From positions 105,408-169,407 of the forward strand of contig CAYOLW010000001.1 of assembly GCA_964404925.1 (NCBI GenBank): 64,000 bases of DNA, given 5' to 3'. Of the stretch, positions 1-61,876 are shown one piece after another. The stretch's first letter is position 1; the number at the start of each line of letters is the position of its first letter. This stretch comes from an uncultured Candidatus Saccharibacteria bacterium. Lineage in GTDB: Bacteria > Patescibacteriota > Minisyncoccia > Phycocordibacterales > UBA9973. A program made the translations under genes and the position numbers. The notes under the pieces were generated by a model, which saw nothing but the letters and a program-made list of their open reading frames with translations, ran no database searches and was not told where the DNA came from.

Positions 1-357
1 AGAGCAGAATAGATGTGTCCTTCCATGTGGTTGATACCTATTAAAGGTTTATTATATTTTTCCGCCAATTCTTTTGCTTTATTAATACCAACACCAAGAG
101 CAATAGCCAGTCCGGGTCCATAGGTTACTGCTATTGCATCGATTTCTTCTATTTTTACTTTCGCACCTTCGAGTGCTGCTTCGATAACAAAATCAATATT
201 TTCCTCGTGCATGGTGCGAGCAATACCTGGTACAACTCCACCCCATTTTTTATGAATCTCAATCTGAGAAGAAATTTTATTAGTTAAAACCCGAGTGCCG
301 TTTGTTATGGCAACAGAAGTTTCATCACAGGATGTATCAATGGCTAATATATACATG
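1..357 (-). CDS. tsaD: tRNA N6-adenosine threonylcarbamoyltransferase TsaD (Kae1/YgjD family), N-terminal part. The gene continues beyond the window start.
   Basis: The minus-strand translation begins [20 protein letters not shown]...[19 protein letters not shown]...GINHMEGH, with ATG at 355-357. These are typical TsaD N-terminal motifs. Confidence 0.8.
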
Positions 358-1458
358 TTAGTTTGAATAATCGCTTACTGTAATTATCCTCTCATTTTCG
401 TGCGGTCCGTGCTCTATTTTAACCCAAATAATAATGGCGTTTTCAGAAGCTTTGCTCAAGAAGCCTGGAACTTTGTTAGCCCATTCGATCGAGAAGACAT
501 GCCCTTCGTTTATTTTATCCAAAAGACCTAATTCTTCTAGTTCATTTTCATCTGTTAGTCTCCAGGTATCGAGATGGTATAGCTTTGGATTTTTTTCTGC
601 ACTGTATGATCCGGCTACTGTTTCTATACTATATTCTTTTTCAATTATGAAAGTGGGGGATTGCACTGCACCTTTAATGCCGAGTGCGCTAGCAATACCT
701 TTCGTCATTTCTGTTTTGCCTGCGCCGAGCTCACCCTCAAGTGCTAAAATGACTGATTTGTATCCTAAATAATGTTTATACTTACTGATCAATTTAGCAC
801 CGAAAGATTGTGTTTCTTCACCATTCTCGGTTTTGAGTTTTTCTACTTCGGTTAACTTCATGTCGCCTTGGCGTAAAACCACCTCGCCACCTAATGTTGT
901 GTCTACAACAGTAGAAGGTTCACGTTTTGGTAGTTCTCCAGCGTCAATAATTAGATCAATTAATTCTTTTTGTTTATCTGAGATGTTTTCTAGGATATCA
1001 GAAATATCGTAGGGTTTTTTCTTGTACGATGCGTTAGCTGATGTGGCGGTAATAGGGTAACCAAGAGTGGATACAATTTTGCGTACAAGCTCGTAGTCAG
1101 GTATTCGTATACCTAAGGTTCCAGTTTCAGATTCAACCCCGGATGCTACAGTGTGTAGTCCACGAGAAACTACAGTGAGCGGTCCGGGCAAGAAGTTTTC
1201 GTACAAGTTGCGGGCAGTTTCGTTAATCTCAACATACTTTTGCGCCATGTCGATAGAATCAACAGCAATAGAAAGAGGCTTGCCTTCACGTCTGGTCTTG
1301 TATGAGAGTAATTTATTCACTGCTTCTTGGTTGGTAGCCATTGCACCGATTCCATAAACAGTTTCTGTAGGGAAAATGACCAATCCGCCACTTTGTAGTG
1401 TTAGGACAGCAGCTTCTATCACAGCTTCTTCATTGTCTATTTTTAGCACTTTCGGCAT
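358..1458 (-). CDS. tsaC/tsaE: Fusion protein: an N-terminal YrdC/Sua5 (TsaC) threonylcarbamoyl-AMP synthase domain and a C-terminal TsaE (YjeE) P-loop ATPase domain.
   Basis: The N-terminal half carries the YrdC motifs ([25 protein letters not shown]). The C-terminal half carries the TsaE motifs (GELGAGKT Walker A, SPTF, HLDTWRL). It lies immediately upstream of tsaD. Confidence 0.8.
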
Positions 1459-1534
1459 GTCTGGTTATTATACATTTTATACACAATTCGCAACTATTAT
1501 TGAAGTTAAAGCATTTTTTGTTTATTATGTGTAT

Positions 1535-35984: not shown

Positions 35985-38771
35985 ATGGATATACTTTCAT
36001 TTAAAGGTGTACCAAAATTCAAAACAGCTGAAGAAGAACTGCATTTTTTACGTAATCAAGTAGCTGAAAAAGAGAAGGCTTTGATCGAGCAAGGTCATTT
36101 TGAACACGCACAAGAAAAAGCTATAACCAGTACAATTGCTGAATATAAAAATATTCCAGTAGACGATGTTGTCCATAAAGAGAATGCAATCAAAGAAGAA
36201 GATACTGAAAACATTGTACTTAAGCTAAGACCTGAAACACACGATACCGTTATGGAAGAACTGTTAGGTTTAATGATTACTAAGGGTATTAGGAATGTGA
36301 TGTCTGTGGTTGAGTCAATGAATGATCCACATATTGATGATGACTTCCACAGATTACTGATTCAATATTTAAAAACTGGCCAAGCAATCCCAGGCATGAT
36401 TGATGGTTCACCTCTTTGGAAGCAGCTCAACATGACTCTTTTTGAAGTTACGTTACCAGCGCCTAAGGATGAGGCAGATAAAAGCAAAGGATTTAAAGAA
36501 TTCATTGGTGCCATGGAGCAGTTCTATGCTGGTATGCACTCCATATCTGGAGACCCACGTAATTTAAAAGAAAACTATTTTACTTTAGAAATTGCACTTT
36601 CTAGTTCTTCGGATCAGGTGGTGGTATATGCGGCTGTGCCGAATAAGTATTTAGCTTTGTTTGAAAAACAAGTGCTAGCTTTCTATCAAGATGCCAAGGT
36701 AGAGGAAGTGAATGATGACTATAATGTGTTTAGTAGTGGTGGGGTTTCCGTCGGTGCTTATGCGACATTTTCTGAAAAACCAGTTTTACCTATTAAGACC
36801 TATGATGTGATTGATCATGATCCGATGAATACTCTTTTAAATGTATTCTCTAAATTAAAAACCCATGGCGAGGGTGCAGCTATTCAATTAGCTATTGCAC
36901 CGGCTGGAGATAAATTTATTAATGATTTTACTTCTATCTTGCGTGAGGTTAAAAAGGGTACTTCCGTTAAATATGCATCAGACGAATTTTATAAATTCAG
37001 CGCAGCTTTTATCAAGGTTGGACGAGAGATATTTATGGGACATGAGAAGAAAAATGAAGACGGTGAAAAAGCCATGCCGGGACGCCGATCTGTAGATGAA
37101 GGAGCGGCCGAGAAAATAGCTAATAAAATAAAAAGCAGCATCATGCGAGCGAATATTAGATTCGTTGCTTCAGCAGAGACCAAGGAAAGGGCAGAAGCTA
37201 TCCTGGCAGAAATTGAATCTTCTTTCAATCAGTTTACTGAACCAGCTAGTAATTCTTTCTTGTTTGAGAAGTTGAAGGGTAGCGATTTGAAAAAGCTATT
37301 CCACGACTACTCATACCGTGCCTTTAATCCAGATAAAGTAATGCCAATGAACCTAAAAGAGCTTGCTTCAGTTTTCCACTTCCCAGTTGGTATTGGTTCA
37401 CAACCTGCACTTAAAGAAGCAAAGGCTGGTATGGCACCTGCGCCTATGGAGCTGTCTACTGGTCCAGCCAAGGATGGTATATTGCTCGGTATTAATAGTT
37501 ATCGAGGTAAAGATACAGAGATTTGGATGTCTAGAGAAGATCGTATGCGTCATATGTATGTAATCGGACAGACCGGTACCGGTAAGACCACCATATTGAA
37601 AAACATGATTGCTCAAGATATCAAAAACGGCGATGGTTGCTGTTTTATTGATCCGCACGGTACGGATGTTCAGGAAATATTGTCTTATGTTCCCAAAGAA
37701 CGTATGGATGATGTTATCTACTTTGACCCTGCCTACACAGCTCGTCCGATGGGACTTAACCTACTTGAGTATGATCCAAATTACCCTGAACAGAAAACAT
37801 TCGTGGTAAACGAACTTATGGGAATTTTCAATAAACTTTTTGATATGAAAGTTGGTGGTGGTGCGATGTTTGAACAGTATTTCCGTAACAGTGCATTTCT
37901 AGTGATGGAAGATCCAGATTCAGGTTCAACATTGCTTGAAATTACTCGGGTCCTGGCCGACAAAAACTTCCGTGACATGAAACTCGCCAAGTGTAAAAAT
38001 CCAATCATCAAACAATTCTGGATTTCAGCTGAGGAGACTACTGGTGATCAATCATTGGCAAACTTCGTTCCATATATTTCTTCAAAGTTTGATAACTTTA
38101 TTTCTAACGACATTATGCGTCCGGTGGTATTGCAGCAGAATTCTGTATTTGATTTTCGTAAGATTATGGATGAGAAGAAAATACTCTTGGTAAACCTCTC
38201 AAAGGGTAGACTAGGGGACATTAATGCGAACCTGATTGGTCTTGTGCTAGTGGGTAAGATTCAGATGGCTGCACTTTCTCGTGTGGACATGTTTGGTAAG
38301 AAGATGAATGACTTCTATCTATATATCGACGAGTTCCAGAACGTAACAACTGATTCTATTGCTTCTATACTTTCTGAAGCTCGTAAATACCGCCTGTCAC
38401 TCAACGTTGCCCACCAGTATATTTCTCAGCTTGAGGATAATATTAAAAATGCTGTTTTCGGTAACGTAGGATCTATGGCTATATATCGTATTTCGCCAGA
38501 GGACGCTAATTTCGTGGAGCCTAAATTTAAACCAATGTTTACTGCGAATGATATTACTAAACTTGATAACTTTAATTCTTATGTAAACATGTTGGTGCGA
38601 GGTACACCAGTAAAACCATTCTCGATGACGTCCCACTGGACACTCCTCGGAGATAAGGGAAATCCAGATATTGTTGAGCCACTCAAAGAACTTTCGTATT
38701 TAAAATACGGTCGTCCTCGAGAAGAGGTCGAGTCAGAAATATTAGCACGATACGATTCGTTGAAATCGTAG
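35985..38771 (+). CDS. Large (928 aa) P-loop NTPase. The C-terminal half resembles a TraD/TraG/VirD4 (type IV coupling protein, AAA_10-like) ATPase. The ~500-aa N-terminal region has no recognised family and no predicted TM helices.
   Basis: Walker A is HMYVIGQTGTGKTT, followed by DPHG. Walker B plus the sensor reads LYIDEFQN...ARKYRLSLNVAHQYISQL, which fits the T4CP DEF..QL pattern. Confidence 0.55.
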   Translation: MDILSFKGVPKFKTAEEELHFLRNQVAEKEKALIEQGHFEHAQEKAITSTIAEYKNIPVDDVVHKENAIKEEDTENIVLKLRPETHDTVMEELLGLMITKGIRNVMSVVESMNDPHIDDDFHRLLIQYLKTGQAIPGMIDGSPLWKQLNMTLFEVTLPAPKDEADKSKGFKEFIGAMEQFYAGMHSISGDPRNLKENYFTLEIALSSSSDQVVVYAAVPNKYLALFEKQVLAFYQDAKVEEVNDDYNVFSSGGVSVGAYATFSEKPVLPIKTYDVIDHDPMNTLLNVFSKLKTHGEGAAIQLAIAPAGDKFINDFTSILREVKKGTSVKYASDEFYKFSAAFIKVGREIFMGHEKKNEDGEKAMPGRRSVDEGAAEKIANKIKSSIMRANIRFVASAETKERAEAILAEIESSFNQFTEPASNSFLFEKLKGSDLKKLFHDYSYRAFNPDKVMPMNLKELASVFHFPVGIGSQPALKEAKAGMAPAPMELSTGPAKDGILLGINSYRGKDTEIWMSREDRMRHMYVIGQTGTGKTTILKNMIAQDIKNGDGCCFIDPHGTDVQEILSYVPKERMDDVIYFDPAYTARPMGLNLLEYDPNYPEQKTFVVNELMGIFNKLFDMKVGGGAMFEQYFRNSAFLVMEDPDSGSTLLEITRVLADKNFRDMKLAKCKNPIIKQFWISAEETTGDQSLANFVPYISSKFDNFISNDIMRPVVLQQNSVFDFRKIMDEKKILLVNLSKGRLGDINANLIGLVLVGKIQMAALSRVDMFGKKMNDFYLYIDEFQNVTTDSIASILSEARKYRLSLNVAHQYISQLEDNIKNAVFGNVGSMAIYRISPEDANFVEPKFKPMFTANDITKLDNFNSYVNMLVRGTPVKPFSMTSHWTLLGDKGNPDIVEPLKELSYLKYGRPREEVESEILARYDSLKS

Positions 38772-38779: not shown

Positions 38780-39310
38780 ATGAAGAAAGTCGTTATTGCA
38801 TCGGAAAACCCAACCAAGATTGAAGCAGCTAGGCTGACTTTTGCTGCTGTATTTCCGGATGAGGTTTTTGAATTTGTTGGGGTTAAATCTGATTCTGGTG
38901 TTCCAGATCAACCAATGAATGAGCAAACTCGAAAAGGCGCTGAAAACAGATTGGCTTTTATTCGTGAAAAATATCCAGATGCAGACTATTGGATGAGCCA
39001 AGAAGGTGGAACTTTTGAAGAAGGGGATAAACTGTATAACCGAGCTTGGATTATGGTATGTGATAAAGATGGTTTTGTGGGCGAAAGTTCTACTTCTCAT
39101 TTTTATTTACCAACTGAGATGGTTAGCCATATTCGTAATGGCTTAGAAATGGGTCATGCTGGAGATAAATTTTTTAATACCCAGAATATAAAACACTCAA
39201 ATGGAGTTGTTGGTGAATTAACCCGCGGTGTGTATTCTAGAGCAGAATACTACTCACAGGCAGGGATAATCGCACTATCTACAGTGGTGCATAAAGAATG
39301 GTTTAACTAA
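38780..39310 (+). CDS. yjjX: Non-canonical purine NTP phosphatase (inosine/xanthosine triphosphatase, YjjX family)
   Basis: SENPTKI, GVPDQP, TRKGAENR and GELTRGVYSRAEYYSQAGIIALS closely parallel YjjX. Confidence 0.75.
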   Translation: MKKVVIASENPTKIEAARLTFAAVFPDEVFEFVGVKSDSGVPDQPMNEQTRKGAENRLAFIREKYPDADYWMSQEGGTFEEGDKLYNRAWIMVCDKDGFVGESSTSHFYLPTEMVSHIRNGLEMGHAGDKFFNTQNIKHSNGVVGELTRGVYSRAEYYSQAGIIALSTVVHKEWFN

Positions 39311-40193: not shown

Positions 40194-40613
40194 ATGAATC
40201 GGAAGAAGTTGTTTAATCGTCTGGCAAGTCTCGTGATTTTTATATCACTCATTAATTTTCTAGCGATAAAATTTCATTGGTACTACTCTATCTGGTGGTT
40301 TGATATGCCGATGCATTTCCTTGGAGGTATGTGGGTAGGACTTTTCCATATATGGTATTTAATACACCGAGAACTCTCGGCTAAGGAGATTGGGCAAGTT
40401 ATTCTGGGTGTGTTTATTGTAGCTTTCGCTTGGGAGGCTTTTGAATTTATTTTAAATGCTCAAACGGTAAAAAATGCCTTTGATTTACGGGATACAGTAT
40501 CTGACCTGTTCTTTGGTCTATCGGGTGGATTTACTGCAATATTCTATGTGTTTCTAAGGATTATGAACATTCCAAAAAGTACGCTACAATTCTATAATGC
40601 AGAAAAAAATTAA
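40194..40613 (+). CDS. Hypothetical integral membrane protein, possibly VanZ-like
   Basis: A 139-aa protein with 3-4 TM helices and an FDLRD...SD...G.SGG motif reminiscent of the VanZ family. Weak assignment. Confidence 0.4.
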   Translation: MNRKKLFNRLASLVIFISLINFLAIKFHWYYSIWWFDMPMHFLGGMWVGLFHIWYLIHRELSAKEIGQVILGVFIVAFAWEAFEFILNAQTVKNAFDLRDTVSDLFFGLSGGFTAIFYVFLRIMNIPKSTLQFYNAEKN

Positions 40614-41961
40614 GATAACCTTTTGCGGCGGAGCAGGATCAGTAACTGGCGCCAATTTTTTAATAGAAGTTGAAAATAAAAAAATTCTTGTAGACTGTGG
40701 ATTACAGCAGGGGACAAAAATGGCCGATGAAGTAAACTGGCAGCCATTTGCCTATGACGCACACTCTATTGATATTTTGTTTGTTACGCATGCTCACATA
40801 GACCACTTGGGCAGGGTACCGAAATTAATTGAGGATGGTTTTGCTGGCAAAATATATTCCACATTACCGACCAAAGCACTCGCTTTGCCTATGCTTGAAG
40901 ACACTGCTTTTATTCTAGGACATAATCACGAACTTAATTTGGGTGAGATTTATAGTGATCATAATTTAAAAACGGCATTGTCCCTATGGGAAGGCTTTCC
41001 ATACTACGAGAAGACTGAGATAACACCAGAATTATCTTTCACCTTATACAATGCTGGGCACATATTGGGTTCTGCGATGATTGCTTTTGACTACAATGGT
41101 AAAAGAATTTTGTTTACTGGAGATTTGGGTAATAGTCCTTCACCAATTTTACCAGACACTGATAAGGTGGAAAACGTAGATTACTTGATTATGGAATCCG
41201 TATATGGAGACAGAAATCATGAATCAAGAGACGAACGTAAAAAAATGCTTGAAACGGTTATTGAAGATAACTATAAACGTAAGGGTACACTCATGCTACC
41301 AACTTTCTCACTAGAGCGTTCACAAGAATTACTCTTTGAACTTAATGATTTGGTAGAAAACAAACGAATTCCAATGATGCCGATATTTTTTGATTCTCCT
41401 CTGGCTATTCGTTTGACCGAGATATTTAAACAATTCAAAGACTATTTCAATGAAAATGCACAGAAAGCTATGGTGCATGACAAGTATATTTTTGAATTTC
41501 CAGGCTTAAAAACAACATTAAAAACCGAGGAATCAAAAATGATTGTGAATACCCCAGATCCAAAGGTCATCATTGCTGGTAGTGGTATGTCCAATGGTGG
41601 TAGAATAGTGCACCACGAGAAGGAATACTTACCAAGTGCTAAAAATACGTTGTTGTTAACTGGTTACCAGTCAGCAGGAACCTTGGGTAGACTTATTCAG
41701 GAAGGTGTAAAAACCGTTAGAATAGCCGGTGAAGAGGTTAAGGTAAAAGCCAATATTGTTACCATACTTGGATATTCTGGGCACAAAGATTCTGATGGAT
41801 TGGTTAATTTTGTCTCAGATATGCAGGATACTCTGCAGAAAGTTTTTGTTGTAATGGGTGAACCTAAATCCTCGATGTTCTTGGTTCAAAAGTTGAAAGA
41901 CAACTTAGGACTTGATGCGGTTATGCCACAAGAAGGCGATAGTATTACGCTCGAGTTATAA
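40597..41961 (+). CDS. MBL-fold metallo-hydrolase of the beta-CASP ribonuclease type (CPSF/RNase J-like)
   Basis: VDCG, THAHIDHLG (HxHxDH), GD..N and H..D in a 454-aa protein typical of bacterial beta-CASP RNases. Confidence 0.7.
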   Translation: MQKKIKITFCGGAGSVTGANFLIEVENKKILVDCGLQQGTKMADEVNWQPFAYDAHSIDILFVTHAHIDHLGRVPKLIEDGFAGKIYSTLPTKALALPMLEDTAFILGHNHELNLGEIYSDHNLKTALSLWEGFPYYEKTEITPELSFTLYNAGHILGSAMIAFDYNGKRILFTGDLGNSPSPILPDTDKVENVDYLIMESVYGDRNHESRDERKKMLETVIEDNYKRKGTLMLPTFSLERSQELLFELNDLVENKRIPMMPIFFDSPLAIRLTEIFKQFKDYFNENAQKAMVHDKYIFEFPGLKTTLKTEESKMIVNTPDPKVIIAGSGMSNGGRIVHHEKEYLPSAKNTLLLTGYQSAGTLGRLIQEGVKTVRIAGEEVKVKANIVTILGYSGHKDSDGLVNFVSDMQDTLQKVFVVMGEPKSSMFLVQKLKDNLGLDAVMPQEGDSITLEL

Positions 41962-41983: not shown

Positions 41984-42589
41984 ATGGACGCACTAAAGAA
42001 AAATCCATACGACAAACACGGACATCAACAGATTAAAATTTGTGTAGCTGGTGCAGCGGAAACAGGTATCTGTGGTATTGATGCGTTAGACAAAGCCAAG
42101 GACTTGGGTAAAGAAATAGCTCGCAGTGGTGCCATACTCATAACCGGGGCTACTGGGGGTTTCCCGATGTGGGTGGCTATGGGTGCCAAGGAAGTTGGTG
42201 GATTGGTTATTGGCTTTTCTCCAGCAGCCAATGAGAACGAACATGCGAATATATACAAGCTTCCATTAGATTATCTAGATTTGGTTGTTTATACTGGGTT
42301 TGGTTATCCTGGACGAGATATACTAATGACTCGTTCTGCTGATGCTGTTATTTGCGGTTGTGGACGCATTGGTACAGTGCATACATTCACTGTAGCTTTC
42401 GAAGAAAATAAACCTATTGGTATTTATAAGGGACCTTGGGAGACCGGGGAGGAGCTTGAAGAAATACTAAAGAAGAGTCAGCATAGCAGAGAAAAAATAT
42501 TTACCGGCGATGAACCTAAAAAATTACTACAAGATATAATAACGGCTGTCCGTAAAGAAAAGGTAGAGGAATATAAAATAGTAAATTAA
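41984..42589 (+). CDS. LOG/TIGR00725-family Rossmann-fold nucleotide-binding protein
   Basis: GAAETG...ITGATGGFPMWVAMGAKEVGGLVIGFSP is a SLOG/LOG-like signature. Confidence 0.6.
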   Translation: MDALKKNPYDKHGHQQIKICVAGAAETGICGIDALDKAKDLGKEIARSGAILITGATGGFPMWVAMGAKEVGGLVIGFSPAANENEHANIYKLPLDYLDLVVYTGFGYPGRDILMTRSADAVICGCGRIGTVHTFTVAFEENKPIGIYKGPWETGEELEEILKKSQHSREKIFTGDEPKKLLQDIITAVRKEKVEEYKIVN

Positions 42590-46376: not shown

Positions 46377-47570
46377 ATGGGAAAATTATGTTATTATAAC
46401 AATATGCAAAAGGAAACTGTTCCATTTGTGAATAAAAATAATCTAGTTTGGTGTCGAGAAAAATCTGGTTTAACTATTAATCAGGTCTATGAAAAAGCTA
46501 AGTGGTCATCAAAAACTCATAAAATTGAAAAATGGGAAGCCGGTTCAGATTTTCCTACCATAGATGACTTAAAAAAGCTTGGTAAAATTTACAAAAAGGC
46601 TTGGACACTTTTTGTTTTTGAGCAAGATTTGAAAAATTTAGATTTCATGGTAATGAAAGATTTTCGTGGCTGTATCTCAGATTCTAAAGGGGAAGAAAAG
46701 AGTGAAATAATTCAGTTTCTAAATGAAATAGAACGTCGACAACTATTTGTCATTGAATTCTCTAATGCCCTTGAAATTATCGGTAATAAAAGTTTTGGTT
46801 CGTTGACTGAAGTAAAGGATGTTAATGTCGTTGCGAATAAAATAATCCAAAATCTTAATCTTAATATGGAAGAATTTCGCAGAAAGAAAACAAGATTAGA
46901 AGCCTTAAATTTCTTGCAAGAAGAATTGGGGCGAAATAATATATTTGTTTCTTTTTCTAGCACCAATCCACATAAAAAAATAAGTCTTGAACATATGCGT
47001 GGGGTTTTAATGAGGTCTTTTCTGGCACCAATTATTGGTATTAATTCTGCAGAAAAGTCGGTGGGCGCTAAGATTTTTACTATTTTTCATGAGCTTGCAC
47101 ACCTGTACACAGAAAAGGTTGATCATGATGTTTTAATTGACACTATTAATTTTCGAGATTTAGGTAAGCGTAATACAAAAGAGGGCTTGTGTGATCAGAT
47201 AGCTGCAGAAATATTAGTACCCCGTAATATTCTTGTTGAATTAAAAGGCACTTCATTCAATCCAGAGATTGTTAAGAAATATTGTATTTATTTGAAAGTT
47301 AATCGTGAGCCTTTTTTAATACGTGCAAAAGAACATGGTTTAATTAGTGAACAAGAATTTAACTCATTAAAAAATATTTCGGTTGAAGAACAAATTAAAA
47401 AAAATAAAAAAGGTAATCCGGATGGCGGTTTATTGCATATTTTGAAAAATGGCAAGTCTTTTATGCGGCTTGTTAATTCTCTTTACTCAACAGGCCTAAT
47501 ATCATATTCACAAGCACTAGGTGCTTTAAATACAAAATCCAATGCTTTTAATAAATATGTAATTAGATAG
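46377..47570 (+). CDS. XRE-family HTH domain fused to an ImmA/IrrE-family (COG2856, DUF955) zinc metallopeptidase
   Basis: The N-terminal HTH reads LVWCREKSGLTINQVYEKA. HELAHL (HExxH) lies in the C-terminal domain. Confidence 0.7.
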   Translation: MGKLCYYNNMQKETVPFVNKNNLVWCREKSGLTINQVYEKAKWSSKTHKIEKWEAGSDFPTIDDLKKLGKIYKKAWTLFVFEQDLKNLDFMVMKDFRGCISDSKGEEKSEIIQFLNEIERRQLFVIEFSNALEIIGNKSFGSLTEVKDVNVVANKIIQNLNLNMEEFRRKKTRLEALNFLQEELGRNNIFVSFSSTNPHKKISLEHMRGVLMRSFLAPIIGINSAEKSVGAKIFTIFHELAHLYTEKVDHDVLIDTINFRDLGKRNTKEGLCDQIAAEILVPRNILVELKGTSFNPEIVKKYCIYLKVNREPFLIRAKEHGLISEQEFNSLKNISVEEQIKKNKKGNPDGGLLHILKNGKSFMRLVNSLYSTGLISYSQALGALNTKSNAFNKYVIR

Positions 47571-47574
47571 ATTT

Positions 47575-48063
47575 ATGGAAGTAAACAAATCAGCACTATA
47601 TGTTTTCGATAGTAACTGTTTTATTGAGCCTTGGAATAAGTTTTATTCTTACGAATTTTTTGAGCAATACTGGGATAAGTTTTTAAAAAAAAGTTTAAGC
47701 GATTGCACAGTCTTAATTCAAGAAGAAGTTTATAATGATATTCTAAAAAAAGATGATGGTCTTAATCGTTGGTTGAAAGGTTTTAAGATAGAAATTGTTA
47801 AAACTGATATAAGTATAACTCGAGAAGTTGCGGCTATAAATAATAAATTCCCAAAGTTGACAAAAGAATATAGTGGTAGATCTTTTTCAGATCCTTTTGT
47901 AATAGCACTAGCTAGGTTTCGTAAGGCAACAGTTGTAACCATGGAAGATTTCGGTAGTGAAAATAAACCAAAAATACCATTTGTATGTGACCAAATGGGT
48001 GTTAAATGTATTGATTTATTTAAGTACTTAAAGATTGAAGGCGTATCTTTTTCAATCAAATAA
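47575..48063 (+). CDS. DUF4411-like PIN-like nuclease-fold protein, partner of the ImmA/IrrE gene
   Basis: YVFDSNCFIE, SDPFVIALA and VVTMED fit the PIN-like acidic-residue pattern. It lies 4 nt downstream of the ImmA-HTH gene. Confidence 0.6.
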   Translation: MEVNKSALYVFDSNCFIEPWNKFYSYEFFEQYWDKFLKKSLSDCTVLIQEEVYNDILKKDDGLNRWLKGFKIEIVKTDISITREVAAINNKFPKLTKEYSGRSFSDPFVIALARFRKATVVTMEDFGSENKPKIPFVCDQMGVKCIDLFKYLKIEGVSFSIK

Positions 48064-48239
48064 TTTTTTGTTGTGGACTTAGTAGCGAAAAGTGCGAACC
48101 AAATGAGAGCCTTTATAAATCAATGGTCAGAGTTCTTTAAACATAACAAACCAAACTTTCAAACAACCTAAAACCTTTATTTTAAAACATTTTATTGCTT
48201 ATTAGATATCACAATAAGAGTATTGAATACTATCTATTA

Positions 48240-49517
48240 CTACAGGTTCTTAAAATAAAAGTCTGGCAGAACAACTTTTAATTCTTCGTTAGCTGCACGA
48301 TAGCGATCTGGCGAGTGCGGAGTTGATGGATATTTATCAACGTCTTGAGGATTAGGTCTTTCTATTAGTTTTATGTCAAAAGTATTAAGTATTTCCTTGT
48401 CTTCACCGACAACTAACCTGTTTGTATATTGTAAGTAGGAATTGTTTGTTATTAATATAAGTCTAGCTATTTCATTTCCAGCACTAATAGCTTTTACCTT
48501 AACAAACTGTTTAAAGTAAGAGTAATTATCTTGGACATTAATGTATTTTGATGCTGTAACAGCAATACATATAAGTCTATTAGGTTTATATCCCAGCCTT
48601 GATAGTTCAATGTAATCAAGATTGGCTTGTCTTAATATGAGCTTTATTTTTCTCATAGTCATTTCGGGATATCTTATGTGTATGTACTCTAAAAACTCAG
48701 TAAGTTTTTTATCTTCACCTATAGTGTCAGTTGGATCAGCTTCAAATACATCAGCTACAAAATCTTGTAAATTACTCTCACTTTTTTTATTAAAAAACTC
48801 AATATAATCAAAACATTTTAAGTATGTTTCAATGTTGTCTTCATAACTTTTATTTGATACAGCAACAATAACGGTAACTTGTTTTTGTAAGGTATTTTTA
48901 GTTAAAAACTGTCTAAATGTTTCTAAAAAGAAAAGTCCATCTGGTCCTGATCTATCTATGTCTTCAATAACAAAAACTATCTTATCTTTATCCACTGCAT
49001 TAATAAGTGAGGTAAAAATATCTTGTATTTCAAACACTCGTCTTGCTGGAGACTTATCAGCAAAGTATTCAAGATTTTTTACAAGTCCAAATAGTGGTTC
49101 AAGTAACTTAGGTAACCCAAAAGCAGTAGTTGCAACATTCAAGATAGAACCAGCGGTATTTATTCCTAGTTTCTTGTCTTTACCAGATTGCCCATCAACT
49201 TCTCGTTTAACTTTTTCAAGCATACTTAGTTGTCTAGCTGTTTCAAGGATTAGCCCGTCCCATAATTCTTTGCGCTCTGGAAATTGCCAAGCATCAAAAT
49301 GGACCCACTGCTCAGTTGTTTCTTTTTGTTTTCTAATCTGTTCAATCAAGGTACTCTTTCCAACACCAAAAGGTCCGATAATTCCTATTATTTGAGAACC
49401 TTTCTTTGATTGCAACTTCTCAGTTAGCGTACTTACCGAAGAAGAGATATTAAGATAGTCTTTATCAGAAACTTTTTCTTCTAGTAAATCAACATTTTTT
49501 ATAAAACCATTTTTCAT
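48240..49517 (-). CDS. KAP-family P-loop NTPase
   Basis: IGIIGPFGVGKSTL (Walker A) and IVFVIEDIDRSGPD (the KAP-type DDLDR Walker B) are present. It lies 15 nt downstream of the Abi-alpha::Nudix gene. Confidence 0.7.
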   Translation of the reverse strand: MKNGFIKNVDLLEEKVSDKDYLNISSSVSTLTEKLQSKKGSQIIGIIGPFGVGKSTLIEQIRKQKETTEQWVHFDAWQFPERKELWDGLILETARQLSMLEKVKREVDGQSGKDKKLGINTAGSILNVATTAFGLPKLLEPLFGLVKNLEYFADKSPARRVFEIQDIFTSLINAVDKDKIVFVIEDIDRSGPDGLFFLETFRQFLTKNTLQKQVTVIVAVSNKSYEDNIETYLKCFDYIEFFNKKSESNLQDFVADVFEADPTDTIGEDKKLTEFLEYIHIRYPEMTMRKIKLILRQANLDYIELSRLGYKPNRLICIAVTASKYINVQDNYSYFKQFVKVKAISAGNEIARLILITNNSYLQYTNRLVVGEDKEILNTFDIKLIERPNPQDVDKYPSTPHSPDRYRAANEELKVVLPDFYFKNL

Positions 49518-49532
49518 AACGCCTAAATCTTA

Positions 49533-50933
49533 TTAATTAGATTTAATTATTAAAGTATTTTTTACTTCTTTAAAAATAGCCAACATATCATCACTTAAAA
49601 TTAAATTTATGAACTTCTTTTTGTCTTCTTCAGATAAGTTTGGTAAATCGTCAATTTTCCAAGCTTCAAAACCTTCTGCTTTACCTTCTTCAACTTTTAG
49701 ATCTGAGATAGGACCTTCATAAAGATAGGCATACTGGCTACGGATTGTGTTATTAGTAAGTTTAGTTACCTCATCAAAACTTTCCTTTCTCATTTTTCTT
49801 AGAAAAGTTAGCTTTGAAAGATCAATATCAATACCTGTTTCTTCTTTGCATTCTTTTACAGCGGTTTCTTCATATGACATTTTGGGTTCAACGTGTCCTC
49901 CAACAGTAGCGTCTAATTTATCAGGATAGGTATCTTTGTTTTTTGCTCTATGTTGAAAAATAATCTCTCCTTGAGGCGTAATAAACCAGATATGTATTTC
50001 CCGATGGAGAAGTCCGTCTTTGTGTATTTTTGAACGAGTTTGAAGACCCACTACTTTATCATCCTCATCAATTACCTCAAGGATTTCTTGGTATTTATAA
50101 TTTGATATTGAGTAGTGTTCTTTTAACCACTCAGTATACCCATCAACCTTTTTTGTTTTCAGATGTTGCAATATTTCTTTACCAGCAACAGAAATTGCAT
50201 AAAAAGTAGGTATTCTTAAATCTGCATTATTTTCTATGATTGGTTCAAAAACAATTTGCTCATCAAAGTAATCAATTATATACGGTAAGCCATCAGGGTT
50301 AGATATATTTCTAGTCATATCGTTTGGTAAAAATAAGCCTAAACTTTGCAGTGCTTGGAGACTACCAAAATGTAAACCTAATCCAGACATCATTTCTTTA
50401 ACATTTTCACTGCCACTGAATAAATCTTTTGGAAGTTGCTCATTATTTAACAATAGCCCAGATATTTTTTCAAAAAGCTCTAGTTCTTTTTTACCTATGG
50501 ATTTTAATGTTTGCAAAGTGCTCATTGAATAAGTTTCAGGATTGTTGTATTCTCCAGCGATTATTTTTGCAATCAAATCTTGAACCTCTTCATTTGAAAC
50601 TTCTTTTGCGTGTTCAAGAAGTCCCCAGAAGACGTCATTGTCATCTTTTATATTATTTTCAGAACTCGTAATCAAGTCTTTGGTTTTAAGTAAAGCATTA
50701 CCCAAGTTGGCATATTGGCGACCCATTTTTTGAGCTTCCGCTTGTAACCAAAAAGGTTTTTCTAAAAGTTCCCATTTTGTTTTAACCTTGTCAGCTTCAA
50801 TATCTCCCTCAGCTTCAAAAACTTTTATGGATTTACCTGTATACTTTGTAATTACAAAATCAACAAACTTATCAGCCACCTTTGTTAAGGTCGCTTTTCC
50901 TAGATCTTTTAATGGTTGAGGTAAATCGCTCAT
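49533..50933 (-). CDS. Fusion protein: an N-terminal Abi-alpha-like (DUF4393-like) domain and a C-terminal Nudix hydrolase domain
   Basis: The N-terminal region has ...DVFWGLLEHAKEVSNEEVQDLIAKIIAGEYNNPETYSMSTLQTLKSIGKKELELFEKISGL, which resembles Abi-alpha. The C-terminus has the Nudix box GGHVEPKMSYEETAVKECKEETGI. The start is the ATG at 50933, preceded by an extended -10 TGTTAGAAT. Confidence 0.6.
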   Translation of the reverse strand: MSDLPQPLKDLGKATLTKVADKFVDFVITKYTGKSIKVFEAEGDIEADKVKTKWELLEKPFWLQAEAQKMGRQYANLGNALLKTKDLITSSENNIKDDNDVFWGLLEHAKEVSNEEVQDLIAKIIAGEYNNPETYSMSTLQTLKSIGKKELELFEKISGLLLNNEQLPKDLFSGSENVKEMMSGLGLHFGSLQALQSLGLFLPNDMTRNISNPDGLPYIIDYFDEQIVFEPIIENNADLRIPTFYAISVAGKEILQHLKTKKVDGYTEWLKEHYSISNYKYQEILEVIDEDDKVVGLQTRSKIHKDGLLHREIHIWFITPQGEIIFQHRAKNKDTYPDKLDATVGGHVEPKMSYEETAVKECKEETGIDIDLSKLTFLRKMRKESFDEVTKLTNNTIRSQYAYLYEGPISDLKVEEGKAEGFEAWKIDDLPNLSEEDKKKFINLILSDDMLAIFKEVKNTLIIKSN

Positions 50934-50998
50934 AATTGCTATTCTAACATTTTTAAGATTAAAAAATAAGTCTAAAAATGGTATAATTAGGTGTATAA

Positions 50999-51370
50999 AT
51001 GGTGGAAAAAACATATAACTTTAATAATCTTAAAATCCGATCAAAAGCTATTGCAAAAGCTCGTATTTCAACTCGTCCAAAGACATATAACTCTAAGAAA
51101 AAACGCTTGGAAGACATACAAAGAGAACTGATAAAATCAGAACTTATAAAAGAAGGATTTTTAGACCAATTAAAGCCACATATGCCAAAAATAACAGAGG
51201 CTGTTATTCAGAGTGCTTGTGATCCAAGCTCTAAGGGTACAAGTGACAGGAGAATTATATTTCAAGCGGTTGGTATTTTAGGAAAAGATACTCAAGTAGA
51301 GCCAAGCCAGACAATAGCGGATGTGTTAGCTGAGATTTTTAGTGAAGAAGTAGTAAACAGTAAAAGCTAG
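50999..51370 (+). CDS. Hypothetical protein (island cargo)
   Basis: An ORF with ATG, transcribed divergently from the Nudix gene and preceded by TGGTATAAT. No family recognised. Confidence 0.4.
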   Translation: MVEKTYNFNNLKIRSKAIAKARISTRPKTYNSKKKRLEDIQRELIKSELIKEGFLDQLKPHMPKITEAVIQSACDPSSKGTSDRRIIFQAVGILGKDTQVEPSQTIADVLAEIFSEEVVNSKS

Positions 51371-51418
51371 GAAAATCTAGGGAATTATAAATATATCCCT
51401 TGATATGCTATAGGTAGT

Positions 51419-51634
51419 CTATGTTTTTTCTTTATTAGAAGTTATTTTGTAATAATTTGGAAATAGAACTTTAACTTTGTCTTTTTTAGTGGCTAATTTA
51501 GCCAAAAATGGCTTCATAACGAGCTTTGGACGCTCAGATATAGATTTGTTCCATAACCACTTTTTATAGCTATTTATGACTATTTTACTTAAGAAACTAG
51601 TCATACGACTATTTCTTAGATCTAAGCTTTTCAA
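51419..51634 (-). CDS. Hypothetical small basic protein
   Basis: The ORF overlaps the upstream membrane-protein ORF by 26 nt in another frame. It could be real or a frameshift remnant. Confidence 0.25.
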   Translation of the reverse strand: MKSLDLRNSRMTSFLSKIVINSYKKWLWNKSISERPKLVMKPFLAKLATKKDKVKVLFPNYYKITSNKEKT

Positions 51635-52007
51635 CTTTATAAGCTTTATATAAGAAAAATACGGTAAGCCCAGTAAAAAAGATTATAAAGTAAAGGATAT
51701 CTGGACTACTTGAAAAGTCACCATTTATATCTCTTCTACTTTCAACATATCTAGCTAAAATAATAAAACCTAAAATAATAGAATATATTTTTGTTGTGAT
51801 AACCAAACCAACACTAGCTTTCTTGATAAGTAGGTAAGAAAATATAAATCCTAAAATAGTAAAGACTAAAGGTGCAGCTAAGGATAAGAGTATTAAAAAA
51901 ATAGCTGCAACACCTCTGTTTGTTTTGTGCCATTTAAGACTTTTGTATTGTTCTACTTGCTTTATAAAAGAACTTTCTTTTTGCTTGATTTCTTCAGTTG
52001 TGATCAT
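51609..52007 (-). CDS. Hypothetical membrane protein
   Basis: A 132-aa protein with 3-4 predicted TM helices. Confidence 0.4.
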   Translation of the reverse strand: MITTEEIKQKESSFIKQVEQYKSLKWHKTNRGVAAIFLILLSLAAPLVFTILGFIFSYLLIKKASVGLVITTKIYSIILGFIILARYVESRRDINGDFSSSPDILYFIIFFTGLTVFFLYKAYKVEKLRSKK

Positions 52008-52671
52008 ATTTTTTGTATAAAAAATAGGCTAATAATTTAGCCTATAAACAAATATAGGCAACCCAGTGGGTGCTCACAAAACCAATAGACAAGCTACTGA
52101 TTATGCTTCCCACATAGGTCGCCTATGCTTGGCACAATCAGTAACTAACCCTTTTTAAGGGTTCGCTTGATGTCTTTTTATTGGTTTTGTGAGCAAGTTA
52201 ATGATAACATAATTTGATTTTATTTTTAAGTTATAAATGTTATAATGTACCTAACTAGAGATTTTCTAGTTAGGTCTGACACAACCTTAAGCTCAAAAAA
52301 GACACTTTTTAATTTTTACAATAGTCTTGAGAGTAATAATGTGATTAAGCTAGTTTTGAAACATAAAAATGTACCCACTAGTTAAAAGAAAGCTAGCCGA
52401 GTTGTATGCTTTATTTATGTTAGAAAATGCACAAAGTAGCTTAGTGTGAAGTTGCAACTTATCACCTCGTGATATTTCCAATCAAGTACACAGAGTAAAT
52501 AAATAAATCCTCCTGCCTCTTACAGGAAATCCTTGAAGATAGTATCTCCAAGCCGATTAAGGGTTTATTTGCCACTCTGTCTAGCTGATTAGACGTATCG
52601 CAAAGACACAGCCTTTATGGGCTGTTTTTTTGTTTTATTAGGTGTCACACAAACCCACTATGCCAAACTAA

Positions 52672-52830
52672 AATGACATTAGAGGAGTTTAAAAAACATT
52701 TTAAAAACAAAAATGTAAATGATGAGCGTATAAAAGAAATACGCGATTATTTGTATGCAATTTCAAGAGAAATTGTCTTAAACAATTTAAACGAATACGA
52801 AAAACAGATAAAAGAAAAAGGTGTAAAGTA
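52672..52830 (+). CDS. Small ORF (52 aa) immediately upstream of the recombinase. It could be a recombination directionality factor or Xis-like helper, or a spurious ORF.
   Basis: It runs from an ATG at 52672 to a TAG at 52828-52830 (MTLEEFKKHFKNKNVNDERIKEIRDYLYAISREIVLNNLNEYEKQIKEKGVK). The assignment rests on position only. Confidence 0.25.
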
Positions 52831-52843
52831 GTATAATGAATAT

Positions 52844-54490
52844 ATGAGTAAGCATAAAAAAACTATTGTTAAAAACCCAAAACAGCAATTTTCTCTTGAT
52901 GGATATGTAGGTTTGCCTTATTTACGTGTTTCAAGTAAGAGACAAGAAATTGAGGGTACTGGCTTACAAAGCCAAGAAAAAAGATGTTTAATGGAGCTTT
53001 CTAATATAGGTATTCCTCACGAGAAAAGTTTTTTTGATAGCTATACAGGGGGTGGGGATTTTATGAACCGACCAGCAATGAGATCTTTACTTGCGTATGT
53101 TGATGCGCATCCTCATAAAAAGTTTGTAGTCATTTTTGATGATTTAAAAAGATTTGCTAGAGATACCGAATTCCACTTAAAGCTTAGACTGGCTTTTAAA
53201 AATAGAGGTATAGTTCCAAAATGTTTAAACTATAATTTTGACGACAGTCCAGAAGGGATGTTTGTTGAAACTGTTTTGGCTGCATCAAATGAATTAGAAA
53301 GAAAACAAAACGCTAGACAGGTAGTGCAGAAACAAAAAGCACGACTTGAGGCTGGGTATCGCGCGTTTCCGTCTGTTAAAGGGTACACAAGAGTAAAAGA
53401 TCCTATTCACGGAAAGATTGATATTCAGAACGAACTTGCTATATATGTAAAAGAAGCTTTAGAAGGATTTGCAAGTATGCGTTTTGTTCACAAAATTGAT
53501 GGGGCTAAGTTCTTACAAGAAAAAGGAGTAATAAGTAAAAAACAAAATGCTGATAAAGCAATTTCTACTTTTGATAAGATGCTAAGAGAAGTCTTCTATG
53601 CTGGATACATAGAATACGAGCCTTGGGAGGTAAATAGAAGGGTTGGACACCATAAGAGCTTGATTGGTCTTGATACTTTTAATAAAAACCAAAATAGGCT
53701 GATTAAAAACGCAGTTTCTTTTACTAGGCAAGATATACGAGAAGGGTTTGAGTTAAGGGGATTAATAAACTGTGCATACTGTAATAAAAAGTATACTGGT
53801 GGACCTTCAACTGGTAGGAGTGGTAAAAAATATAATCTATATAAATGCCCAACAGTAGGCTGTGAAAGATATGGTAAAAGTATAAGTACAAAAATTGTTC
53901 ACACGCATTTTGAAGACTTATTAAAAAATATAAAACCGTGCGAAGAAATAATTGATCTAGCTAAGAGTGTTTTTGAAGAAGTGTGGAACGAGGAAATTAA
54001 AAACAGATCAAGCCTGCATAGTTCAATCATTAAGCATAAAAATGATTTAGAAAATGATATCTCAACTTTTACTGACAGAATATCAAAAGCAGTAGAAACA
54101 GGGGCAAGTGAACTTGTAATAAAACAATATGAAAAGCAAATACATAAAATTGCCACTGAATTAGAAGATCTTGAAGAAAACATAAGCTTAGCGTATGACT
54201 ACAGTATTCCTTATAGAACCGCTAGTGAAGAAGTGTTAGGTGTGTTAAAAAGCCCTTATGCTGTATGGAAAAATTACAATCCAGCACAAAAACAAAGGTT
54301 CTTCTCTTTTATATTTGAGACTAATTTAATTTATAGTAAAGAAGAGGGTTATAGAACACCAAGTTATTCTTTACCTATAAGGATATTTGAGGAAATAAGT
54401 ACCTCAAAACCCCTTGATGTGGAACTGGGGGGAATTGAACCCCCGTGCAGAAAGTGTGTGCCAAGAAATCTACATGTGTATTTTGTTTAA
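52844..54490 (+). CDS. Large serine recombinase (resolvase/integrase family). The last ~23 codons are read across the antisense of the tmRNA 3' end.
   Basis: It has an N-terminal resolvase catalytic domain (YLRVSSKRQE with the catalytic Ser; FDDLKRFARD), then a recombinase domain, a zinc-ribbon-like CxxC...CxxC region (CAYCNK...CPTVGC) and a coiled-coil. Confidence 0.8.
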   Translation: MSKHKKTIVKNPKQQFSLDGYVGLPYLRVSSKRQEIEGTGLQSQEKRCLMELSNIGIPHEKSFFDSYTGGGDFMNRPAMRSLLAYVDAHPHKKFVVIFDDLKRFARDTEFHLKLRLAFKNRGIVPKCLNYNFDDSPEGMFVETVLAASNELERKQNARQVVQKQKARLEAGYRAFPSVKGYTRVKDPIHGKIDIQNELAIYVKEALEGFASMRFVHKIDGAKFLQEKGVISKKQNADKAISTFDKMLREVFYAGYIEYEPWEVNRRVGHHKSLIGLDTFNKNQNRLIKNAVSFTRQDIREGFELRGLINCAYCNKKYTGGPSTGRSGKKYNLYKCPTVGCERYGKSISTKIVHTHFEDLLKNIKPCEEIIDLAKSVFEEVWNEEIKNRSSLHSSIIKHKNDLENDISTFTDRISKAVETGASELVIKQYEKQIHKIATELEDLEENISLAYDYSIPYRTASEEVLGVLKSPYAVWKNYNPAQKQRFFSFIFETNLIYSKEEGYRTPSYSLPIRIFEEISTSKPLDVELGGIEPPCRKCVPRNLHVYFV

Positions 54491-54812
54491 AGTTTTAAAC
54501 TCATAGATTATTAAACGAACAAAATATCTTTGAGTCGATTCCTAAGTTTTCGTGAGTTGTGCGGACGGGCAACTCCTTATTCCGATAATATTACACCTTA
54601 ACCCATGCATCGGAAGTCGATGGGCAAGACGCCAGATTCGACTAAGCGAAAGCTGGAGCAAAAGCGAAATCCTTCATACCGAAGTATGGAGATTTCATTC
54701 CTGCCTTAGATGCTAATTTTGCAATTAGACTTTGAACGCTTATTAACGAGCATGCGTTCATCCTCGACATGCATCAAGACACGACGGCTTACTGTCTATG
54801 CCTGGCAGTCCC
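54419..54812 (-). ncRNA. ssrA: tmRNA (ssrA)
   Basis: On the minus strand the 5' end is GGGACUGCCAGG and the 3' end is GGGGGUUCAAUUCCCCCCAGUUCCAC (tRNA-like T-arm). The acceptor stem has the G3:U70 wobble typical of Ala charging. The conserved UGCAUGUCGAGG box and PK1 are present, followed by an internal ORF ending GCU UUC GCU UAG. It is adjacent to smpB. Confidence 0.85.
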
Positions 54813-54831: not shown

Positions 54832-55281
54832 CTACCTCTTATACTGACGGCGAATGTCTATATCCGTTTCACGTTTCTTGATAGTCTCGCGTTTATCGAA
54901 CTTCTTTTTACCGCGAGCAACCGCAATTTCTAATTTAACTTTGCGGTTTTTACTATACAACGAAAGTGGCACTATCGTCAAACTTTTGTTTGCTTCTGTT
55001 TCAGATAATTCTTTGATTTCTTTTTTGGTTAAAAGTAGCTTACGATTACGCAATGGATCATATCCCTGTGGTGCATTGATTTCTTGGTAAGGTTGTATAT
55101 TAGCATTGATTATAAAAGCTTCTCCTCCGCGAATAATGACAAAAGCACCCAAGAGGGATACCTTGCCTGCGCGGATGGCTTTAACCTCGGTGCCGATTAG
55201 TTCGATACCGCATTCGTATTTTTCCTGTATTTCATAGTCAAACCAGGCTTTTTTGTTTTCAGCATATACTGCCATAGTCAT
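54832..55281 (-). CDS. smpB: SsrA-binding protein SmpB
   Basis: A 149-aa protein (...NKKAWFDYEI...GIEL.GTEVK) with a basic C-terminal tail. Confidence 0.9.
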   Translation of the reverse strand: MTMAVYAENKKAWFDYEIQEKYECGIELIGTEVKAIRAGKVSLLGAFVIIRGGEAFIINANIQPYQEINAPQGYDPLRNRKLLLTKKEIKELSETEANKSLTIVPLSLYSKNRKVKLEIAVARGKKKFDKRETIKKRETDIDIRRQYKR

Positions 55282-57712: not shown

Positions 57713-57721
57713 TTTCTATTG

Positions 57722-57795
57722 TCCACCCTCATGGATTCGAACCATGGACCCCAGAGGTATAAGCTCTGTGCTCTAACCAACTGAGCTAAGGGTGG
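57722..57795 (-). tRNA. tRNA-Ile with anticodon UAU (74 nt; CCA not encoded; C1:G72; discriminator A)
   Basis: A cloverleaf can be drawn by eye: acceptor CCACCCU/AGGGUGG, D-arm GCUC/GAGC, anticodon stem CAGAG/CUCUG with loop CUUAUAC, and T-arm CAUGG-UUCGAAU-CCAUG. Confidence 0.7.
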
Positions 57796-61579: not shown

Positions 61580-61611
61580 AGACTATATTATAGCATTAGT
61601 TTTGTTTGGTG

Positions 61612-61698
61612 CGGATAGGGTGGGATTCGAACCCACGGTTCTTTTTACAGAACGGCGGTTTAGTAAACCGCTGCCTTAAGCCTCTCGGCCACCTATCC
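61612..61698 (-). tRNA. Class-II tRNA-Ser (G73 discriminator, long variable arm) with an apparent anticodon ACU
   Basis: The acceptor is GGAUAGG/CCUAUCC. The D-arm GCC-GAGAGGCUUAA-GGC is nearly identical to E. coli tRNA-Ser. The anticodon stem is GCGGU/ACCGC with loop UUACUAA. The variable arm is GUUCU-GUAAAA-AGAAC, and the T-arm is GUGGG-UUCGAAU-CCCAC. Confidence 0.7.
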
Positions 61699-61784: not shown

Positions 61785-61876
61785 GGAGACGTGTCAGAGT
61801 GGTCTAACGTACCTCTTTGCTAAAGAGGCAGGGGCTTCAAAACCCCTCGGGAGTTCGAATCTCCCCGTCTCCGCCA
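61785..61876 (+). tRNA. Class-II tRNA-Ser(GCU)-like gene with encoded CCA and a non-canonical D-arm
   Basis: The acceptor GGAGACG/CGUCUCC and the G73-CCA end are perfect. The anticodon stem is CCUCU/AGAGG with loop UUGCUAA. The variable arm is GGGG-CUUCAAAA-CCCC and the T-arm is GGGAG-UUCGAAU-CUCCC. No standard 3-4 bp D-stem can be drawn; the D region instead folds as a 6-bp stem with a 4-nt loop. Confidence 0.55.

Follow-up and report, generated by a model that had tools for sequence, protein, structure and literature searches.

N6-threonylcarbamoyladenosine at position 37 (t6A37) is among the few universal tRNA modifications. In characterised bacteria, ATP-bound TsaE docks on TsaD(–TsaB) in the cavity that also receives the tRNA, and ATP hydrolysis then resets TsaD for the next turnover. 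The closest described systems are the TsaBCDE proteins of Escherichia coli and Thermotoga maritima, in which TsaC (YrdC), the synthase of threonylcarbamoyl-AMP (TC-AMP), and TsaE (YjeE) are separate. Here we describe a gene that joins these two families, with the same motifs and folds, in one polypeptide almost devoid of a linker, next to tsaD of the same pathway. The gene lies in a 64,000-nucleotide stretch of DNA (hereafter the window) from an uncultured Candidatus Saccharibacteria bacterium (GenBank assembly GCA_964404925.1, contig CAYOLW010000001.1, positions 105,408 to 169,407). We propose that this TsaC–TsaE fusion (TsaCE) may hand TC-AMP to TsaD at short range.

TsaE and tRNA compete for the same site on TsaBD, and the ATPase activity of TsaE is needed for multiple turnovers (PMC6614819, PMC10484737). 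In the proposal of Missoury et al., TsaE 'prepares' TsaD for TsaC, TC-AMP passes over before ATP is hydrolysed, and hydrolysis then releases TsaE so that the tRNA can bind; native gel shift is the only method by which the four-protein TsaBCDE complex has been observed (PMC6009658). The half-life of TC-AMP is 9.4 min when free and 160 min when bound to TsaC, and when it is loaded and what part TsaC plays are counted by Kopina et al. among the open questions (PMC7913687). According to the SyntTax paper, YrdC had not been reported to interact directly with the YgjD complex (PMC3571937). The route of TC-AMP from TsaC to TsaD, its timing relative to the binding of TsaE and tRNA, and the contact of TsaC with TsaBDE are open in the literature.

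Other natural fusions resemble TsaCE in part. Sua5/TsaC2 also has a YrdC-type N-terminal catalytic domain followed by a C-terminal alpha/beta domain; there a linker leads to the SUA5 domain, whereas in TsaCE the second domain is the TsaE P-loop ATPase and the gating loop of ~20 residues is missing. TobZ and HypF are fusions of the carbamoyl-adenylate superfamily that shorten the path of a labile adenylate (PMC6009658, PMC10484737). They connect a synthase to a transferase through an internal channel, while in TsaCE the synthase is attached to a regulatory ATPase that binds the opposite face of TsaD. The archaeal Kae1–Bud32 proteins (MJ1130, HVO_1895) are t6A fusions that include a regulatory ATPase, Bud32 being the functional counterpart of TsaE (PMC4615747); that ATPase is joined to the transferase rather than to the TC-AMP synthase, and the folds of Bud32 and TsaE are unrelated. 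The Rosetta-stone t6A fusions YeaZ::RimI::YgjD, Alr::YjeE, hydrolase::YeaZ and TsaC/HemK (PMC3571937, PMC4615747, PMC10484737) and the viral Pandoravirus TsaN (TsaD–TsaC–SUA5–TcdA) do not join TsaC to TsaE.

Full-text searches for the fusion matched only an engineered four-gene cassette. A 2023 paper on Sua5/TsaC evolution mentions neither the Candidate Phyla Radiation (CPR) nor TsaE, and nothing relevant was found in the literature for t6A or TsaE combined with CPR. The original prediction, made from the sequence alone, had supposed the arrangement to be uncharacterised, and this is borne out within the searchable literature: in full-text searches, t6A reviews and a survey of fusions in the complex, the TsaC–TsaE fusion is undescribed, the reviews and the survey listing other fusions only.

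Domain composition and predicted structure of TsaCE

The gene is an uninterrupted open reading frame (ORF) of 366 amino acids, from ATG to TAA, that fills positions 358..1458 of the window on the minus strand. Its features, with the evidence for each, are:

358..1458, minus strand: tsaC–tsaE fusion gene, 366 aa, with the TAA stop codon in 358–360 (both domain models above curated cutoffs)
847..1458, minus strand: N-terminal TsaC (YrdC-type threonylcarbamoyl-AMP synthase) domain, residues 1–204 (PF01300, TIGR00057, Foldseek)
829..864, minus strand: domain junction, residues 199–210 (AlphaFold2 model, ends of the Pfam matches)
361..846, minus strand: C-terminal TsaE (P-loop ATPase) domain, residues 205–366 (PF02367, TIGR00150, Foldseek, alignment to E. 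coli TsaE)
712..735, minus strand: Walker A / P-loop GELGAGKT, residues 242–249 (conservation in 29 fusions)
556..576, minus strand: switch II motif HLDTWRL, residues 295–301 (conservation; aligned to E. coli HFDLYRL)
472..489, minus strand: IEWANK (switch I / catalytic), residues 324–329 (conservation; aligned to E. coli VEWPQQ)

Matches above the curated cutoffs in both Pfam and NCBIfam agree with the original prediction of a single polypeptide with TsaC (YrdC-type) at the N-terminus and TsaE at the C-terminus. The Pfam family PF01300 (Sua5/YciO/YrdC) covers residues 21–198 (window 865–1398; E = 3e-48, 164.1 bits against a cutoff of 25.1), and PF02367 (TsaE) covers residues 211–342 (window 433–828; E = 3.3e-28, 98.6 bits against 26.6). 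The NCBIfam equivalog models score 182.8 bits for L-threonylcarbamoyladenylate synthase (TIGR00057, cutoff 123.2) and 78.7 bits for TsaE (TIGR00150, cutoff 60.1). The fusion is almost certainly a member of the TsaC and TsaE families alike.

The motifs of both families are present and conserved in an alignment of 29 fusions with 53–88% identity. The TsaC half contains KTRREGKP (residues 54–61), TATSANAS (residues 137–144), PSTVVDTT and LRQG. Residues K54, R56, GKP 59–61, S140-A141-N142, PSTV-DTT 181–188, R196 and G198 are invariant or nearly so, and the ATP/threonine-binding motifs, which we take to be K-x-R and S-x-N, align to E. coli TsaC. In the TsaE half, whose core shares 34% identity with E. 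coli TsaE, the motifs GELGAGKT, SPTF (residues 267–270) and HLDTWRL are located where they had been predicted, and IEWANK follows. Walker A residues G242, G245, G247, K248 and T249 are invariant, as are H295, D297 and W299 of switch II and E325, W326 and A327; S267-P-T269 is invariant or nearly so, and R300 nearly so.

W299 aligns with the canonical Tyr82 of HxDxYR in switch II (HFDLYRL in E. coli), this tyrosine being replaced by tryptophan in all 29 aligned fusions. E325-W326 align with the E-W of E. coli VEWPQQ, taken as Glu108/Trp109 by published numbering. The structure of T. maritima TsaBDE shows Tyr82 stacked on Lys166 of TsaD and Trp109 in contact with the gamma-phosphate (PMC6009658). 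By this alignment, W299 would keep an aromatic residue at the site of stacking on Lys166.

An AlphaFold2 model of TsaCE, built on the fusion alignment, shows two canonical folds with a mean predicted local distance difference test score (pLDDT) of 91.7 and a predicted template modelling score (pTM) of 0.85. In a Foldseek comparison with the PDB (target-normalised TM-scores), the N-terminal half, which has the YrdC alpha/beta twisted open-sheet fold, reaches 0.86 to 1k7j and 0.80 to 1hru (E. coli YciO/YrdC), and matches Sua5 structures with E about 1e-19 (2e-19). The C-terminal half reaches 0.82 to 1htw (HI0065), 0.77 to 6s84_B, which is TsaE within the T. maritima TsaBDE complex, and 0.75 to 5np9. 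The passed cutoffs, the TsaE-specific motifs and the fold similarity (TM 0.77–0.82) identify this half as TsaE and not as another P-loop kinase, as the original prediction had it.

In the model, a strand at residues 193–196 closes the YrdC fold, and a strand at 206–210 and a helix at 213–225 open TsaE. Every block has a pLDDT of at least 76, with no disordered segment. The Pfam matches stop at residue 198 and restart at 211, and the length of the junction is conserved among the aligned fusions. The junction is thus predicted to be ordered, only a handful of residues long and essentially without a free linker. A search of the PDB by sequence matched no single chain across both the TsaC and the TsaE domain. 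Only Sua5 aligns over both halves in Foldseek, with a root-mean-square deviation of ~11–12 Å, and just its N-terminal domain truly superposes.

The family scan returned only PF01300 and PF02367 and no Pfam match to the SUA5 domain; judged by its domain matches, the fusion is not a Sua5/TsaC2. A KYKHY segment, considered as a relic of the Sua5 gating loop (K-Y-R-H-Y; phmmer), was rejected: only Y227 is conserved, and the segment is helix 1 of TsaE. In sequence, the TsaC half resembles MTH1692, an archaeal TsaC homologue, and the catalytic domains of Sua5 (E = 1e-34 to 1e-31) more closely than it does E. coli TsaC, and its match to YciO in a sequence search of the PDB (E = 2e-17) is weaker than these. 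YciO is a non-isofunctional paralogue in which the active site is also conserved, the discriminators being gene context and a YciO-specific basic patch (bioRxiv 10.1101/2024.07.01.601547). The TsaC half is fused to TsaE and next to tsaD, and no rnm neighbour is seen. This context, on which a tentative separation from YciO rests, strongly favours TsaC.

Occurrence of the fusion and its linkage to tsaD

If two adjacent genes had been merged by a sequencing or assembly error, or if the C-terminal half were some other P-loop NTPase or kinase, the fusion would be an artefact. The identical 366-aa ORF is present on an independent Logan contig (L021, assembled from run SRR12762285). All 120 of the best 120 homologues (53–100% identity, 292–396 aa) carry both Pfam domains; their source names include Patescibacteria, Paceibacteria, Nomurabacteria, Microgenomates, Collierbacteria, Dojkabacteria and Saccharimonadia. 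In a second set, centred on Woesebacteria/Microgenomates, the great majority of the 120 proteins listed are two-domain. In all, more than 230 database proteins have the same TsaC-then-TsaE order, and all named sources of the fusion are Patescibacteria/CPR. The TsaE half was also searched by itself against 1.84 billion cluster representatives (50% identity). Among the best 150, at least 27 are 350–450 aa long with TsaE at the C-terminus, and the seven of these that were tested all combine PF01300 with PF02367.

In genome and metagenome loci we find 57 distinct fusion ORFs, down to ~41% identity, all with TsaC followed by TsaE. A related metagenome-assembled genome (MAG; L006) has a broken fusion ORF, which could speak for an artefact; the break falls within the TsaE domain, away from the junction, and indicates an error or pseudogene in that MAG. 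As the independent assembly, the homologues and the loci retain the fused frame, and as the TsaE models pass their curated cutoffs with the SPT, HxDx(Y/W)R and EW motifs and the fold present, an artefact is extremely improbable and is excluded for practical purposes. On the same evidence, no frameshift separates the halves, and the fusion is conserved across related genomes.

The fusion is common in Patescibacteria, is not peculiar to the source genome and is patchily distributed. This domain-architecture variant is widespread in the group and visible to annotation pipelines. For one protein (P0306), the IMG product name opens with the TsaC-family designation (Sua5/YciO/YrdC/YwlC) and continues, after a slash, with the start of another name. 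Most source-named records are labelled only 'L-threonylcarbamoyladenylate synthase', a label that hides the TsaE function and so constitutes an annotation gap.

Separate genes also occur in the group. In the cultured saccharibacterium Southlakia epibionticum, tsaC adjoins tsaD, and a 196-aa tsaE adjoins a 130-aa tsaB (PMC10633639 supplement). In Minisyncoccus archaeiphilus, tsaE, tsaD and tsaC are separate and dispersed (PMC12281837 supplement). Amesbacteria-like Microgenomates have a stand-alone tsaE of 140–196 aa directly upstream of tsaD. The Microgenomates loci share the gene order SBP, VanW, X, TsaD, a class-I aminoacyl-tRNA synthetase gene, L25 and DUF4012, where X is either the TsaC–TsaE fusion (L012, 6001–7056) or, at the same syntenic site, a stand-alone TsaE (L102/L103, 6001–6423; L104, 3625–4215). 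Since fused and separate forms both occur, some of them syntenic, the architecture has been gained or lost within the group, and an apparent recent fusion or fission is seen at this Microgenomates locus. A 208-aa protein (P0126), considered as a stand-alone CPR TsaE, was rejected: nearly all its listed relatives are two-domain, and it lies on a 1.9-kb contig and looks like a fragment of the fusion.

Genes for t6A synthesis are essential in most bacteria. In the transposon-sequencing table of Southlakia, SEML1_0047, 0048, 0713 and 0714 (tsaC, tsaD, the 130-aa tsaB and tsaE) are all scored non-essential, and TsaE is annotated only as 'hypothetical protein' (PMC10633639 supplement).

The regions flanking the fusion gene in the window are:

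3..356, minus strand: 5' part of tsaD, its first 118 codons, running off the window start (PF00814, E = 7e-34; TIGR03723, E = 7e-43)
1459..1500, minus strand: region preceding the fusion gene, in which TGTATAAT (extended -10-like) stops 9 nt short of the ATG

The original prediction had placed tsaD immediately downstream. The TAA of the fusion is followed by a single base and then by the tsaD ATG at 356. A full-length tsaD occupies the same position in the relatives L001–L008. The one-base spacing is consistent with co-transcription and translational coupling of tsaCE and tsaD. This tight linkage differs from the situation in most phyla, where the genes are dispersed (PMC3571937).

The linkage was counted in the 44 fusion loci with enough downstream sequence. 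In 33 of them tsaD lies on the same strand, at most 100 nt downstream and often overlapping; in 8 more it is found within 2.5 kb, with a small inserted ORF or gap between (41/44 in total), and in the remaining 3 the flank holds no tsaD. No third gene is consistently linked to the fusion and tsaD in the fetched loci.

In two of the loci (L009/L010, 11080–11988, plus strand; GCA_964403585.1, 1.57-Mb contig), a 302-aa all-helical ORF lies between tsaCE and tsaD. It is found only in L009–L011, contigs with an identical fusion protein. It was rejected as a divergent TsaB, having no Pfam or NCBIfam match at E <= 10 and two DDxxD-like motifs. Such motifs are typical of isoprenoid synthases, and the ORF resembles an isoprenoid or terpene synthase.

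No obvious Shine-Dalgarno sequence precedes the fusion ATG (window 1459–1485, minus strand). The element TGTATAAT is a possible promoter that would give a very short leader or none, and the tsaCE–tsaD mRNA may be leaderless or nearly so. A scan for consensus promoters and terminators returned only weak promoter-like sites and nothing above chance.

Proposed hand-over of TC-AMP and the search for TsaB

The N-terminal TsaC domain of the fusion would make labile TC-AMP from threonine, bicarbonate/CO2 and ATP, and the C-terminal TsaE domain would act as a P-loop ATPase that docks on TsaD. With hardly any linker between the domains, a TsaE half docked on TsaD would bring the TC-AMP synthase along with it. 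In a putative cycle, TsaCE–ATP would bind tRNA-free TsaD, and the TC-AMP made or held by the TsaC half would be loaded into TsaD at short range. ATP hydrolysis would then free TsaCE, after which the tRNA could bind and accept the threonylcarbamoyl group. As a side benefit in an ultra-small cell, the fusion would guarantee a 1:1 stoichiometry. We infer such a coupling, in which a tethered synthase loads TC-AMP at short range while TsaD is in its TsaE-bound reset state, with a probability of about 50%; the original prediction had likewise pointed to a physical coupling of TC-AMP synthesis to the regulatory ATPase. From the model of Missoury et al. one would expect that evolution could fix a rigid TsaC–TsaE polypeptide beside tsaD, so tethered loading is favoured. 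With this as its most likely function, the fusion lends Rosetta-stone support to a hand-off model that is published but still unproven.

According to the main rival, the fusion is mechanistically neutral and arose by genome compaction: neighbouring genes of the pathway lost an intergenic stop, each domain functions like its stand-alone counterpart, TC-AMP still diffuses, and the gain is at most co-expression and stoichiometry. We regard it as a serious possibility, somewhat short of even odds. It would account for the patchy distribution, for the apparent fusion or fission at the Microgenomates syntenic locus (L012 versus L102–L104) and for the separate genes of cultured CPR bacteria. Diffusion is also enough for Sua5/Qri7 (PMC7913687), and in the search of cluster representatives the TsaE domain of the fusion is only 35–50% identical to many stand-alone TsaEs and forms no separate deep clade. 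Against neutrality, the junction is of near-zero length, ordered and conserved in length, unlike a floppy intergenic remnant. The TsaC-then-TsaE order is constant in the 57 loci and in over 230 proteins from CPR lineages that have diverged widely, and the retention of the fusion beside tsaD argues for selection on a three-part unit.

Several observations weigh against tethered loading. The occurrence of separate genes in Southlakia and Minisyncoccus implies that the fusion is evolutionarily dispensable, and some Microgenomates carry tsaE alone at the exact syntenic position, so the coupling is not obligatory. Yeast mitochondria transfer TC-AMP by diffusion, with no contact between the proteins (cited in PMC7913687). 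In TobZ, the TsaC-like module and the position at which TsaE would bind are on opposite sides of the TsaD-like module (PMC6009658); given this geometry, a channel of the TobZ kind within one TsaD protomer is closed to a TsaC tethered through TsaE. By this analogy, the tethered TsaC would have either to approach the mouth of the active site from the TsaE side or to serve the other protomer. The relative orientation of the two domains is that predicted by a single AlphaFold2 model, judged by its pTM. Finally, neither the window nor the related DNA yielded TsaB, a protein that in known systems provides half of the docking site for TsaE.

The original prediction had noted that tsaB is not in the window, and four types of search over the 64 kb agree with it. 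No tsaB was found with phmmer (E. coli and Vibrio TsaB queries), with a hidden Markov model of the TsaB/TsaD N-domain (run with --max), with a regular expression for the GPGSFTG-type signature, or with Pfam scans of the unassigned window ORFs. Nor was a TsaB-like ORF found in ~1 Mb of related CPR DNA, where the TsaB queries, profile and regular expression matched only TsaDs; the E. coli and Vibrio queries detect every TsaD. Two stand-alone TsaEs (P0193, P0391) followed as leads to tsaB have tsaD, and not tsaB, as their neighbour. The tsaB gene is therefore unlinked to the tsaCE–tsaD pair, a result that does not amount to its absence from the genome.

Loss of TsaB in the fusion lineages would leave TsaCE and a TsaD homodimer as a two-gene minimal t6A system, with TsaE docking on the TsaD–TsaD interface. 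This would fit the searches, which detected every TsaD and no TsaB in the window or the ~1 Mb of CPR DNA. Further, no TsaB is annotated in the examined part of the Minisyncoccus gene table, and mitochondrial Qri7 works without partners (PMC6009658). However, absence from the flanks is weak evidence, because only about one unlinked single-copy gene is expected by chance per ~1 Mb sampled from genomes of 0.6–1.5 Mb. Known CPR TsaBs are tiny and easy to miss: the 130-aa mini-TsaB of Southlakia and a 106-aa ORF of a Parcubacteria MAG, weakly assigned to K14742 (the tsaB orthologue group), argue that TsaB exists in CPR. TsaE is also kept, and in known systems it needs the TsaB–TsaD interface. We therefore consider the loss of TsaB unlikely.

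In a more far-reaching and still more doubtful proposal, the t6A machinery of fusion-bearing Patescibacteria would have collapsed to two genes, with TsaCE acting on a TsaD homodimer and no TsaB or a vestigial mini-TsaB. The rigid junction would set the synthase at the mouth of the TsaD active site, so that loading and the ATP-driven reset become one concerted step. If true, this would be the simplest known bacterial t6A system and would show directly, in structural terms, at what point and in what manner TC-AMP is loaded.

A widespread, rigid TsaC–TsaE polypeptide is Rosetta-stone evidence for the synthase acting at the TsaE-bound state of TsaD, and it is a natural test case for the hand-over of the unstable intermediate. 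As a single-chain reagent, it could serve to study the loading complex by cryo-EM or crystallography and to measure channelling versus diffusion. The fusion also adds to the picture of ultra-small CPR cells economising on multi-protein machines.

Substrate tRNAs and other features of the window

The window encodes a tRNA of the t6A substrate type, tRNA-Ser(GCU) with U36-A37-A38. ARAGORN places it at 61785–61876 (plus strand), divergent from a tRNA-Ser(ACU) at 61611–61698 (minus strand) that also has U36-A37-A38. An unmodified A34, as the anticodon ACU would have, is unusual. A tRNA-Ile(UAU) with U36-A37-C38 is predicted by the same program at 57721–57795 (minus strand) and suggests decoding of AUA without the lysidine route.

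Positions 46377–54812 resemble an island that has integrated at the 3' end of the tmRNA gene (54419–54812, minus strand). A large serine recombinase (52844–54490) overlaps the tmRNA 3' end with its own end. The island further holds an IrrE/Peptidase_M78 and DUF4411 pair (46377–48063), a KAP/NB-ARC-like P-loop NTPase (48240–49517) and a DUF2806–NUDIX fusion (49533–51014). Just beyond it lies an ORF (54832–55281) with a putatively SmpB-like N-terminal sequence.

Elsewhere in the window, an NTPase_I-T (DUF84) protein (38780–39310, plus strand) and a SLOG cluster4 (LDcluster4) protein (41984–42589, plus strand) are encoded near a beta-CASP RNase gene (40597–41961). A 928-aa protein (35985–38771, plus strand) has weak matches to TrwB/TraG-type coupling proteins and to HerA/DUF87 ATPases, and may be part of a type IV secretion or DNA-transfer system.

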